Assembly (NCBI GenBank): GCA_963774715.1
Contig: CAVZFX010000003.1
Coordinates: forward strand, 81,824-145,823
Reading direction: 5' to 3'
Length of the DNA stretch: 64,000 nt
Source: an uncultured Alphaproteobacteria bacterium
Lineage (GTDB): Bacteria > Pseudomonadota > Alphaproteobacteria > Rhizobiales > Xanthobacteraceae
Under the pieces are notes generated by a model. It searched no databases. It saw nothing but the letters and a program-made list of their open reading frames with translations, and was not told the DNA's origin. The position numbers and the translations under genes were made by a program. Below, one piece after another: positions 23,276 through 27,935 of this stretch (position 1 is its first letter; the number at the start of each line of letters is the position of its first letter).

Positions 23276-23395
23276 CACGTTCGCTCGATTGCGCATTGCT
23301 ATCCGCCGGCAGCGAACGCGACGGCTCTTACGGTAACCGATTGCTAACCAAACTCGGGTTAACGACTGGTCAACCGTAATTCCGGAGATGCGACC

Positions 23396-24142
23396 ATGGC
23401 CACGAACCCCGATGACGGCGCCGCCGACAACGAGAAGGCGCATGTGAGCGCTGCCAATGGGAACGGGGACGAAGCCGTGAGCAATTTGCCGATGGTGTTG
23501 GCGCCGAAGCTCGGCGCGGGAGAAGACGAGCCGATCGAGGAAGAAGCTGGCGAGGGGACGGCAACGGCCGAGCCTCGTGCGCCGCGCGCGCACTCCTCCC
23601 GATTTCTGATGCTGGCGGGTTCGGTCGCTTTCGCCGCCGCTTTCGGATCGTTCATCGGATCGGTGTCAGGCTCAGGCTTGGTGCGGTTTCTGGATCCGGC
23701 TGCGCCGGCACCGAGCGTGCAAACCACGACGGCCGATGCGGCGCGGCAGACCAAGCTCGAGCTTGCCGAACTGACCGCCATCAGGACCAACCTCGACACC
23801 ACCAGCCGCAGCACGTCGGCGCAGTTGGTGAAGCTCTCGGACCGGCTCGACAAGCTCGATCAGCGCTCCGCCGCGATCGAGACCACCGGTTCGATCGCGA
23901 CCGCGTCGGTGGTTCCAGCCGCGCCACCTGCAGCGCCGAAAATCACCGACCGCGTGTTGCAGGATTGGATCGTGCAGGACGTGCAGAGCGGCCGCGCGCT
24001 GTTACAGAACCGCTACGGCGGCATGTTCGACGTCGGCGAGGGCAGCAACTTGCCCGGCGTCGGCCGCATCGATGCGATCAAGCGGCAGGACGGTCAGTGG
24101 CTCGTGCTGACCGAGCGCGGCACGATCACCTCGGGACGCTGA
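23396..24142 (+). CDS. Hypothetical membrane-anchored protein (acidic N-terminus, one TM, coiled-coil, small C-terminal domain)
   Basis: GGAGA RBS and coding-like codon usage. TM segment FLMLAGSVAFAAAFGSFIGSV. No family recognised. Confidence 0.6.
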   Translation: MATNPDDGAADNEKAHVSAANGNGDEAVSNLPMVLAPKLGAGEDEPIEEEAGEGTATAEPRAPRAHSSRFLMLAGSVAFAAAFGSFIGSVSGSGLVRFLDPAAPAPSVQTTTADAARQTKLELAELTAIRTNLDTTSRSTSAQLVKLSDRLDKLDQRSAAIETTGSIATASVVPAAPPAAPKITDRVLQDWIVQDVQSGRALLQNRYGGMFDVGEGSNLPGVGRIDAIKRQDGQWLVLTERGTITSGR

Positions 24143-24159
24143 ACAGCTTTAAGCCGCTC

Positions 24160-24234
24160 ATTCCCGCGAAAGCGGGAATCTAGCTGAAAATGATTGAGCT
24201 ACGGCTGAAACGCTGGATGCCGCGCTTTCGCGGG
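24160..24234. repeat. Two REP-type hairpins (ATTCCCGC-GAAA-GCGGGAAT at 24160-24179; CCGCG-CTTT-CGCGG near 24220-24234)
   Basis: Read directly. This is the 'ttcccgcgaaagcgggaat' class of intergenic palindrome. Confidence 0.65.
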
Positions 24235-24251
24235 GAGGAGCGGAGTGGGAC

Positions 24252-24371
24252 TTACATGTCGACGTTCGCCGTGAGCGCATGCGCCTCGATGAAGTCGCGG
24301 CTCGGCTCGGCCTTGTCGCCCACCAGCTCGTCGCAGATAGTGTTGGTCTAGTCGGTCTCCTTCACGCTGAC
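24252..24371 (-). pseudogene. Decayed duplicate of the last 40 codons of gyrB, with an in-frame TAG
   Basis: Hand alignment to 25087-25206 gives 97/120 identical nt with no gaps. It translates as VSVKETD*TNTICDELVGDKAEPSRDFIEAHALTANVDM*, versus [39 protein letters not shown] in the real gyrB. Confidence 0.8.
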
Positions 24372-24374
24372 GCA

Positions 24375-24515
24375 CTACTCTTTCATCTTCCTCAATTTCA
24401 TCTTATTCTTAGAGTGTTCCGTTCTTTCACGCTCTCGCAGCAGTTCTTCCATCTTCTTGCGGTAGTCCGCAGGCGGTTGCGCCTTCTTGCTCTTCGTCGC
24501 GGGTCGCTTTGCCAT
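24375..24515 (-). CDS. Small 46-aa Lys/Arg/Glu-rich ORF (MAKRPATKSKKAQPPADYRKKMEELLRERERTEHSKNKMKLRKMKE), below the ORF-track cutoff
   Basis: ATG 24515 is preceded by GGGAGGGG 5-6 nt upstream. That RBS starts right after the TAG stop of the upstream 155-aa gene, an operon-like arrangement. Confidence 0.45.
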   Translation of the reverse strand: MAKRPATKSKKAQPPADYRKKMEELLRERERTEHSKNKMKLRKMKE

Positions 24516-24526
24516 TGTGCCCCTCC

Positions 24527-24994
24527 CTAAATGGTCTTGAGTAAGATATAAACGGCGTGCAGGAAAAGTCCGGCAAAAATCAAGTATCCGGCCCAGATTA
24601 AATGCAACGCCTTGCGATCGTTGACCTTGGAATTGTGCGTGTATGCGACCGCATAGTCGGCGAGGCGAGCGTCGAAGAAATCATCGTCCTGCTGCGGGGC
24701 CTTGCCTAGATGGTGAATAAGCTCCTTCGGATCGCTGGGCACTTGGTATTGAGATATTTGAATCGACCAGAGCGACAGCAAAAATGCGGCCAGCATAGAA
24801 ACAATCATCGTCACAAAGACGAGCTTAAACGTAAGCGTATCTGGCTTTAGGTTCTGCGCCACAAACAAAATAAATGCCGAATAAAAGGTGACCAGTGAAA
24901 GATAATATTTCGCGCGGTCCTGCAACGAGGTCTGGCGCGCGTTCTCTTCATCATAAATGGACTTGAAGTACGAAAATTGTTGCTGCGTCGCCAT
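24527..24994 (-). CDS. 155-aa predicted three-TM membrane protein, no family recognised, in an AT-rich insert
   Basis: GAGGGG RBS. Hydrophobic segments are YYLSLVTFYSAFILFVAQNL, FKLVFVTMIVSMLAAFLLSLWSI and LHLIWAGYLIFAGLFLHAVYILL. Three 60-nt lines counted by hand are 42-45% GC. Confidence 0.7.
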   Translation of the reverse strand: MATQQQFSYFKSIYDEENARQTSLQDRAKYYLSLVTFYSAFILFVAQNLKPDTLTFKLVFVTMIVSMLAAFLLSLWSIQISQYQVPSDPKELIHHLGKAPQQDDDFFDARLADYAVAYTHNSKVNDRKALHLIWAGYLIFAGLFLHAVYILLKTI

Positions 24995-25022
24995 GACGAC
25001 CCCTCGAAGCCATCATGACATC

Positions 25023-25052
25023 ATTTTATGCACCGTTTGGATGCAGACTCAA
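25023..25052 (-). promoter_or_regulatory. Sigma70-like promoter candidate TTGAGT-18nt-TAAAAT for the two-gene cassette
   Basis: Read on the minus strand. The -10 lies about 29 nt upstream of ATG 24994. Pattern match only. Confidence 0.3.
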
Positions 25053-25086
25053 GATAGATCGCTCAGGCAAGGCCAATCCCTCAAGC

Positions 25087-27682
<2,596 letters not shown>

Positions 27683-27749: not shown

Positions 27750-27935
27750 TTAGATTTCGGCGCGCCGGGTTTGCGGCTTGAGCAGATGCTGGTCGCCGGG
27801 CCGGTAGTCGGGAATCGGGTGCTGGAAAGAGCCAAGCGCGGCGGCCCAAAGTTCCATGCGATCCAGGTCCTCACGCAGCCGTTCGAGGGACTCGATCAGG
27901 TTCCGCACAATCAAATCTTCTGCCGGTTCCGGCAT
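27750..27935 (-). CDS. Small hypothetical protein (61 aa) between recF and gyrB
   Basis: GAGGCG RBS about 8 nt upstream and host-like codon usage. No family recognised. Confidence 0.5.
   Translation of the reverse strand: MPEPAEDLIVRNLIESLERLREDLDRMELWAAALGSFQHPIPDYRPGDQHLLKPQTRRAEI

Follow-up and report, generated by a model that had tools for sequence, protein, structure and literature searches.

The subject of this report is a horizontally acquired cassette of two small genes lodged directly behind gyrB in an uncultured alphaproteobacterium of the Xanthobacteraceae. It lies in a stretch of 64,000 nucleotides (nt), here called the window (assembly GCA_963774715.1, contig CAVZFX010000003.1, positions 81,824 to 145,823), and it encodes a predicted inner-membrane protein of 155 amino acids (aa), gene 1, and a 46-aa peptide rich in Lys, Arg and Glu, gene 2. 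Judged from sequence comparisons, the cassette is probably an undescribed, self-contained toxin-like or defence module. What was observed is the operon itself, its conservation and the selection on it, the insertion, a remote similarity that was controlled for, and the lack of a cyclase. As to how such a module would act, the likeliest of the readings considered, which we propose tentatively, is a membrane-breaching toxin or abortive-infection module gated by the peptide; we consider it quite possible rather than probable.

Architecture of the cassette

Both open reading frames (ORFs), both Shine-Dalgarno sites and the promoter-like site were found on the minus strand where a preliminary description of this DNA had put them. 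The features of the locus are as follows.

27582..25087, minus strand: gyrB ORF, the upstream gene; stop TGA at 25089-25087
25086..25206, minus strand: native gyrB 3′ tail, 121 nt, direct-repeat copy 1
24995..25086, minus strand: cassette leader, 92 nt, with promoter candidate TTGAGT-18-TAAAAT (25052-25023) and Shine-Dalgarno GAGGGG (25005-25000)
24527..24994, minus strand: gene 1, 155-aa predicted inner-membrane protein; GAGGGG 5 nt before the ATG; stop TAG at 24529-24527
24375..24515, minus strand: gene 2, 46-aa Lys/Arg/Glu-rich partner peptide; ATG at 24515; Shine-Dalgarno GGGAGGGG at 24527-24520
24251..24371, minus strand: foreign gyrB-tail relic, direct-repeat copy 2; in-frame TAG at 24350-24348 and its own TAA at 24254-24252
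24154..24243, strand undefined: element of 90 nt with 21-nt inverted repeats, like a repetitive extragenic palindrome (REP) or miniature inverted-repeat transposable element (MITE), between the relic and the convergent 248-aa gene
23396-24142, plus strand: convergent 248-aa gene, a conserved neighbour

Only 11 nt separate the two genes, the Shine-Dalgarno sequence of gene 2 overlaps the TAG stop of gene 1, and the 121-nt gyrB-tail repeat begins directly after gene 2. The gene 2 product has 17 Lys or Arg and 7 Asp or Glu residues, with a net charge of about +10, and 50% of it is Lys, Arg or Glu, in agreement with the first estimate of about half. The leader is homologous with that of a cassette in another lineage (L012; loci of relatives are referred to by such numbers), the homology starting at the gyrB stop codon (GTGTGAGCTTGAGGG). 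Within 24100-25300, TTGAGT-18-TAAAAT is the sole promoter-like site of its kind, and with 0.7 such sites expected by chance the count of 1 does not exceed chance. The position of the -35 and -10 boxes is kept in the orthologous cassettes of other lineages (L012, L039 and L047); the L012 counterpart is CTTGAG-N17/18-TATAGAAT, and those of L039 and L047 are similar. It is because this arrangement is kept that we rate it probable that the cassette carries its own promoter. An Rfam scan of 23300-25400 found no RNA family. The window neighbours of the cassette are housekeeping genes, and no cyclase, CD-NTase (cGAS/DncV-like nucleotidyltransferase) or TIR gene lies nearby. The layout resembles that of a type II toxin-antitoxin (TA) system, with two small adjacent genes that would be co-transcribed and translationally coupled, a putative promoter of their own, and a variable locus with empty sites in relatives.

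An undescribed family of small membrane proteins

Relatives of gene 1 were collected with a word-indexed search, which gave 19, and with an exhaustive profile search counted in clusters at 50% identity, which gave 606 clusters at E ≤ 1e-3, of which 256 also pass E ≤ 1e-10. Members are almost without exception single-domain proteins of 150-170 aa, and the GTDB representative genomes hold one distant locus only. On this profile evidence gene 1 belongs to an undescribed family of about 606 clusters. No Pfam, NCBIfam, PADLOC or PHROGs model matches it at the curated threshold, and the same four collections gave no family match for gene 2; the early statement that neither product falls in a recognised family thus stands. 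The best Pfam matches of the family are 8xMP, DUF2721 and DUF2157, at 16-23 bits against gathering cut-offs of 28-32 bits. For 8xMP (PF24838), matches extend to 18 of 106 members (best E 1.7e-4) and cover the N-terminal helix and the first two transmembrane (TM) helices, with the window protein at 18.7 bits, below the gathering threshold of 30 bits. A literature search on 8xMP, PF24838, PF18967 and DUF5706 found nothing relevant, and a PDB sequence search with the family profile returned only a chance match, to ribonucleotide reductase at E 0.055.

An AlphaFold2 model built with 106 sequences (predicted local distance difference test score, pLDDT, 97.0; predicted template-modelling score, pTM, 0.86) has helices at residues 4-49 (a cytoplasmic segment continuous with TM1), 54-77 (TM2), 89-95 (short) and 103-154 (a cytoplasmic segment continuous with TM3), and in the predicted topology a cytoplasmic insert of about 50 aa separates TM2 from the TM3 helix. 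As modelled, the fold is a three-helix membrane domain on a two-helix cytoplasmic stalk. The three TM helices first proposed are likely, given the three long helices of the model and the clear hydropathy of TM2 (58-76) and TM3 (130-155), but TM1 (30-48) is only moderately hydrophobic and is the weakest of them. Foldseek searches of the PDB returned generic helical bundles only, both for a model with pLDDT 80 (E ≥ 0.16, TM-scores ≤ 0.60) and for the pLDDT-97 model (E ≥ 0.34, TM-scores ≤ 0.52), and a search of BFVD returned nothing at E ≤ 0.001.

All the positions conserved in the family lie on two cytoplasmic helix segments with i+3/i+4 spacing, namely Q6, F10, Y14, E17, R20 and L24 in the N-terminal helix and F106, R110, D113, A117, N121, N125, A129 and L132 in the helix before TM3, whereas the membrane segments vary freely. 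Conservation of this kind would be expected of a stalk serving as receptor or gate, held by an unspecialised membrane anchor, and not of a transporter. Just upstream of helix 103-154 is an acidic loop, PxxDEDFFDDR in the family consensus and PQQDDDFFDAR (residues 99-109) in the window protein. Gene 1 has a ratio of nonsynonymous to synonymous substitution rates (dN/dS) of 0.14-0.18, and gene 2 one of 0.39-0.52; all indels in the two genes are in frame, and both genes are under purifying selection. In a near-identical strain (1.46-Mb contig; P0297, P0298) only the C-terminal 71 aa of gene 1 were called and the 46-aa gene is intact, the short call being either a disrupted copy or an assembly indel.

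A small gene as constant partner

Conservation of the small ORF as a partner of gene 1 had been named beforehand as the observation on which the pair would stand or fall, and conservation is what was found. A small ORF on the same strand follows gene 1 in 17 of 19 distinct loci (the window, L009, L010, L012, L016, L017, L019, L022, L024, L026/L028, L029/L014, L034, L035, L039, L040, L046 and L047), starting from 4 nt before to 14 nt after the gene 1 stop, and overlaps of 1-4 nt between the two genes occur in loci other than the window. The exceptions are L030 and L023, the latter with a truncated gene 1 and a gap of 82 nt; L021 and L027 were left out of the count because the contig ends before the site. 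The pairing spans alphaproteobacterial, Baltobacteraceae and low-GC lineages, with gene 1 identity down to 30-33%. What the partners have in common, within variable low-complexity sequence, is the motif P-x-x-[DS]-Y-x-x-K-[MIL]-x-x-[KR]-[LI]-x-x-R, which in the window peptide is A-D-Y-R-K-K-M-E-E-L-L-R at residues 16-27. The comparison across loci marks gene 2 as a real gene and a conserved partner.

Two kinds of natural variant bear on the nature of this peptide. In L010 the motif is duplicated. In L016 and L018 (L016:6479-6898 and L018:2615-3037) a 47-residue peptide part is fused to a C-terminal Peptidase_S74 domain, which begins at residue 47/48 and scores 25.7 and 29.2 bits against a cut-off of 22. 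Peptidase_S74, the endosialidase chaperone, is an autocleaving, trimerising domain typical of phage tail fibres. Its cleavage in L016 and L018 would free a peptide sized like the 46-aa product of the window, and the fusion suggests that the mature partner peptide acts as an oligomer. An autocleaving trimerisation domain of tail-fibre type is in itself an unusual sight in a non-phage two-gene module.

From the same perspective, the notion that the 46-aa ORF is non-functional, and that the membrane protein alone matters, is barely credible. The ORF is indeed very short, of low complexity, without a family match and fast-evolving, as its dN/dS indicates. Set against this are its position and strand, its strong Shine-Dalgarno sequence and a motif kept where gene 1 is only 30% identical, as well as the in-frame indels, the natural S74 fusions and the version with a duplicated motif.

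Remote similarity to membrane effectors of defence systems

The 106 natural family members were scanned against the PADLOC models, with the same 106 sequences reversed as the control. CBASS below stands for cyclic-oligonucleotide-based antiphage signalling system.

PDLC00700 (CBASS 2TM): natural 45/106, best E 7.9e-7; reversed 0/106
PDLC02364 (PycTM): natural 14/106; reversed 1/106
PDLC02365 (PycTM): natural 11/106; reversed 3/106
PDLC02363 (PycTM): natural 5/106; reversed 0/106

Since the reversed counts are far lower, the similarity is not compositional, and a purely compositional origin of the matches was rejected. The family consensus matches PDLC02364 at E 5.7e-6, PDLC00700 at E 1.4e-4, PDLC02365 at E 1.8e-3 and PDLC02363 at E 1.4e-3, the last being a match collinear along the whole length (residues 26-154 on model positions 25-151 of 154). 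Against PF18967 (PycTM), five relatives have precomputed matches, which are weak or faint. No Pfam SLATT family matched at E ≤ 10, apart from DUF4231 at E 0.026, which we take to be a member of the SLATT clan. PycTM is a 3TM protein of the pJV1-SpdB3 family, and PucTM is a hexameric channel lined by TM2 (bioRxiv 10.64898/2026.08.12.744502); type VII Thoeris consists of a TIR protein and the SLATT effector ThsH, and SLATT effectors are thought to oligomerise into membrane-breaching assemblies (bioRxiv 10.64898/2025.12.03.692087).

Pycsar, CBASS and Thoeris systems have a signal generator, and here the loci part company with them. No cyclase and no CD-NTase is among the called neighbours of the pair in any locus fetched, and a TIR gene is present in one of about 20 distinct loci (L009). 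Membership of the window pair in Pycsar, CBASS or Thoeris was rejected, there being no synthase adjacent to it. On the profile comparisons, the gene 1 protein is one that would work like the effectors of the Pycsar and CBASS systems but is not a member of them. Of the preliminary interpretation, which is supported in part, the impression of a TM effector from cyclic-nucleotide defence is what the data bear out best: it holds for the family and its consensus, whose similarity is above the reversed control, but not for the window protein, which is below threshold and has no cyclase.

The L009 locus raises the question of whether the pair could be the orphan effector half of a signalling defence system, of Thoeris type VII or Pycsar-like, with the signal generator lost or encoded elsewhere and the peptide an accessory. 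There, a 339-aa TIR_2 protein (E 1e-22) is encoded immediately upstream of the pair, inside an insert bounded by gyrB-tail sequence, which is the published type VII Thoeris layout, and the family does resemble PycTM and 2TM effectors. However, a TIR gene in a single locus and a cyclase in none leave the small gene as the sole invariant partner; moreover, between the TIR gene and the pair L009 keeps the conserved promoter region that belongs to the pair, and the window neighbours are housekeeping genes. We regard an orphan effector as quite unlikely.

As to whether homologues lie among defence genes or in prophages, the picture is mixed. Some do have defence neighbours, namely the TIR gene of L009, a TA cassette in L047, and genes in L029 and L036, but most contexts are housekeeping and no link to prophages was seen. 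In L036 a caspase-like gene is near the pair. In L029:8751-11238 (= L014), from Baltobacteraceae, genes 2-4 kb downstream encode one protein with a DruA (Druantia) domain (E 1.6e-71) and one with a NurA domain, so that this locus looks like a defence-island neighbourhood.

Insertion at the 3′ end of gyrB

By its base composition the cassette is foreign, and, as the preliminary description had it, it was horizontally acquired. Gene 1 has a GC content of 48% (63% at third codon positions, GC3), gene 2 of 50% (GC3 68%) and the leader of 51%, against 63% for the whole window, 63.5% for gyrB (GC3 84%) and a GC3 of 82% for the 248-aa gene. Its distribution is patchy and strain-specific, and the closest relatives (L041-L045) have an empty site, where 18 nt lie between the gyrB stop and the stop of the 248-aa gene. 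In the window this interval is 944 nt (24143-25086), and the excess of 926 nt is made up of about 835 nt for the cassette unit and 90 nt for the inverted-repeat element. Compared with the empty site, the latter amounts to a further insertion, distinct from that of the cassette. It has 21-nt inverted repeats, CCGCTCATTCCCGCGAAAGCG and CGCTTTCGCGGGGAGGAGCGG, is REP- or MITE-like, and is absent from the relatives with the empty site.

A repeat search found the 121-nt direct repeat, 24251-24371 and 25086-25206, at a spacing of 835 nt; the copies are 82-84% identical over 113-121 nt without gaps, with a mean column identity of 89% in a gapped alignment. The insert is thus flanked by repeats of the 3′ end of its target gene, and relatives have the empty site with its 18-nt spacer. 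The native gyrB tail is near-identical in nucleotides to the tails of the cassette-free relatives L041-L045, while many of the differences between the relic and the native tail are states found in the functional gyrB tails of L009, L012, L021 and L034. Since many of its differences match the functional gyrB of other lineages, the relic is a gyrB tail of foreign origin that moved together with the cassette rather than a native tail that has decayed. The converse, a functional gyrB tail brought in by the cassette, was rejected as well, the functional tail being near-identical to those of cassette-free relatives and the relic being the foreign copy. The left junction is within the last few gyrB codons; from GAT GTG TGA GCTTGAGGG onward the window matches the cassette-bearing L012 and not the cassette-free relatives.

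No integrase, whether tyrosine or serine recombinase, is encoded in the 835-bp unit, which holds only the two small genes. A simple reconstruction that fits these observations would make the mobile unit an 835-bp circle of gyrB-tail mimic, leader, gene 1 and gene 2, joined to the chromosome through one crossover at the outermost 3′ end of the gyrB homology; the native tail would thereby have stayed functional, with the mimic left behind as a relic. Entry of the cassette unit by a single crossover is the most likely route that we infer from these sequences.

Other loci place different cargo in the same slot. In L012/L013, L021 and L046, gyrB is followed directly by the pair. L009 has the TIR gene and the pair and then a 49-nt gyrB-tail relic (L009:6686-6734), and L047 has a PhdYeFM/PIN TA cassette directly after gyrB and then an 80-nt gyrB-tail relic (L047:546-1511), with the pair further downstream. 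The 3′ end of gyrB, a universal phylogenetic marker near the replication origin, looks like a recurrent hot spot of cassette insertion in these Xanthobacteraceae. A literature search on hot spots at the end of gyrB found nothing relevant.

Proposed mechanism and alternatives

We propose, tentatively, that the gene 1 protein would oligomerise as a ring or filament and breach or depolarise the inner membrane once freed from control; the proposal of a pore comes from the remote similarity to CBASS 2TM/SLATT-type and PycTM effectors. Control would be exerted from the cytoplasmic stalk, by the gene 2 peptide and not by a nucleotide signal: the one conserved helix of the peptide, [DS]-Y-x-x-K-[MIL]-x-x-[KR]-[LI], would bind the stalk and the acidic loop (residues 99-109) and, like an antitoxin, keep the pore shut. 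The trigger may be the loss, degradation or titration of a labile basic peptide, for example on phage infection or on loss of the cassette, and opening of the pore would lead to growth arrest, either as abortive infection or as addiction (post-segregational killing). Oligomeric pore formation, binding of the peptide, the direction of the regulation and the trigger are the steps that we infer. A more far-reaching version posits a class of stand-alone pore modules, in which a PycTM/SLATT-like effector is gated by a peptide and spreads, in cassettes of about 0.8 kb with a promoter on board, by recombination into the final codons of gyrB, an integron-like hot spot with TA and TIR cargo in soil Xanthobacteraceae; in this breadth we find the idea doubtful.

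Several results weigh against a peptide-gated toxin or abortive-infection module. The window protein itself matches no PADLOC or PF18967 model (for PycTM, none at E ≤ 1), and it is an idealised consensus and other members of the family that give the highest profile similarities, mostly over the TM1-TM2 hairpin. The gene order, with the membrane protein first and the small protein second, is not the commonest TA order. The net charge of the partner varies among loci, with acidic N-termini in L035 and L040, and since it is not conserved a nucleic-acid-binding role cannot be general. Most alphaproteobacterial contexts, those in Xanthobacteraceae included, are housekeeping genes and not defence islands. 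Finally, searches of 2.9 million viral contigs, 50,697 phage records and 72,556 plasmids turned up no relatives.

The housekeeping contexts also speak for an accessory membrane protein of benign function, served by a small regulatory subunit, be it a stress-related channel, a membrane organiser or an anchor for a peptide in the cytoplasm. In its favour, too, the weak Pfam similarities go to the uncharacterised families 8xMP, DUF2721 and DUF2157, and both genes are under purifying selection. Such a protein, however, sits poorly with a patchy, strain-specific distribution, empty sites in the closest relatives and a foreign composition, with a slot shared with a type II TA cassette and loci in defence-gene neighbourhoods, and with a controlled similarity that, out of 5027 models, singles out those of defence effectors over other TM models. 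We take a benign protein seriously as an alternative and think it unlikely.

The searches of viral, phage and plasmid sequences bear equally on the holin-like or phage-lysis reading offered at the outset, that is, a prophage or mobile-element remnant carrying a holin/antiholin-like lysis module or a superinfection-exclusion pair. A small multi-TM protein on an acquired cassette would suit it, as would the marginal holin matches (Phage_holin_3_6 at E 0.12 and phrog_6384 at E 0.089) and the S74 domain fused to the partner in L016/L018. But with no viral, phage or plasmid relatives, no viral fold match in BFVD at the threshold given above, and no endolysin, integrase or phage genes adjacent in any locus, this reading had to be given up: a holin or prophage remnant was rejected for want of any phage link, and we hold it to be very improbable.

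Should the proposal of a peptide-gated toxin or abortive-infection module prove true, the known means of defence and addiction would gain a compact two-gene candidate. The membrane-breaching effectors known from CBASS, Pycsar and Thoeris are believed to depend on a nucleotide signal. The present family, a widespread relative of about 600 clusters, is paired with a small peptide in nearly all loci and never with a cyclase, which points to another way of controlling one and the same killing device, through gating by a protein and in the manner of TA systems. The family also offers a very confident predicted fold without a solved counterpart and an interaction hypothesis that can be mutated, the DYxxKM helix against the stalk and acidic loop. 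For annotation and for the spread of integrase-less cargo, it matters that the 3′ end of gyrB is a recurrent insertion point at which tail relics are left. By these comparisons, the finding is an undescribed protein family, to be seen as a variant on effectors of a known kind, and the unusual cassette that bears it, which has no integrase and targets the end of gyrB.

Other features of the gyrB region

Between recF and gyrB, at 27750-27935 on the minus strand, is a 61-aa ORF. All related loci (L001, L009, L012, L041-L045) have a called gene of equal size without a Pfam family, and this could be a small gene conserved in the dnaN-recF-gyrB region. The longest gyrB ORF of the window has 831 aa from a GTG (27526-27582), and relatives are called at 812 aa, starting MAEPVRK; translation probably begins at the internal ATG, some 19 codons further on. 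The convergent 248-aa gene encodes a membrane-anchored product whose sequence is coiled-coil-like and falls in no Pfam family. At E ≤ 1e-20 this product has 627 homologues, and those with a source name are mostly from metagenome-assembled genomes of Xanthobacteraceae.

Comparison with known systems

Among small membrane proteins, the uncharacterised families 8xMP, DUF2721 and DUF2157 give matches that recur with the window family, always below the gathering cut-offs. The PycTM and PucTM effectors of Pycsar and Pucsar resemble the window family in build: they likewise have a single domain, a length of about 155-165 aa, three TM helices and a cytosolic region that is helical. They differ in that the window family has no adjacent PycC or PucC cyclase in any locus and has a small peptide as its constant neighbour, a partner not described for Pycsar, and in a beta-sheet appendage that is absent from the model of the window protein. 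The CBASS 2TM and SLATT-type effectors, ThsH among them, are the best-populated similarity of the family and share a TM hairpin flanked by cytoplasmic helices. These matches fall mainly on the TM1-TM2 hairpin (model positions 24-81 of 173 for CBASS 2TM), and the window family lacks the CD-NTase (SMODS). Type VII Thoeris is resembled by the layout of L009, with its TIR gene directly upstream of the pair, whereas the window has no TIR gene.

Type II TA systems, such as the PhdYeFM/PIN cassette in the L047 slot, likewise consist of two small, tightly coupled genes with their own promoter and a patchy distribution, and the L047 cassette occupies the same slot with a gyrB-tail relic after it. As a further likeness, the small partner of the window pair is largely disordered and fast-evolving. 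In contrast, it has no recognisable DNA-binding domain; the toxin-like gene comes first, the putative toxin is a 3TM membrane protein, and neither product is in a known toxin or antitoxin family. As to mobility, the nearest parallel is with integrative elements whose insertion re-creates the 3′ end of the target gene, those with attachment sites of the tRNA or tmRNA type and the satellite or cargo-only kinds. They are likewise bracketed by a repeat of the target 3′ end, with the target left intact, and likewise place different cargoes in one slot across genomes. Unlike them, the window cassette has no integrase, amounts to only 835 bp, and has a repeat that is long and diverged, with the functional copy native and the relic foreign. 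Given such a repeat, and given which copy is native and which is foreign, a RecA-type single crossover fits the cassette better than site-specific integration.

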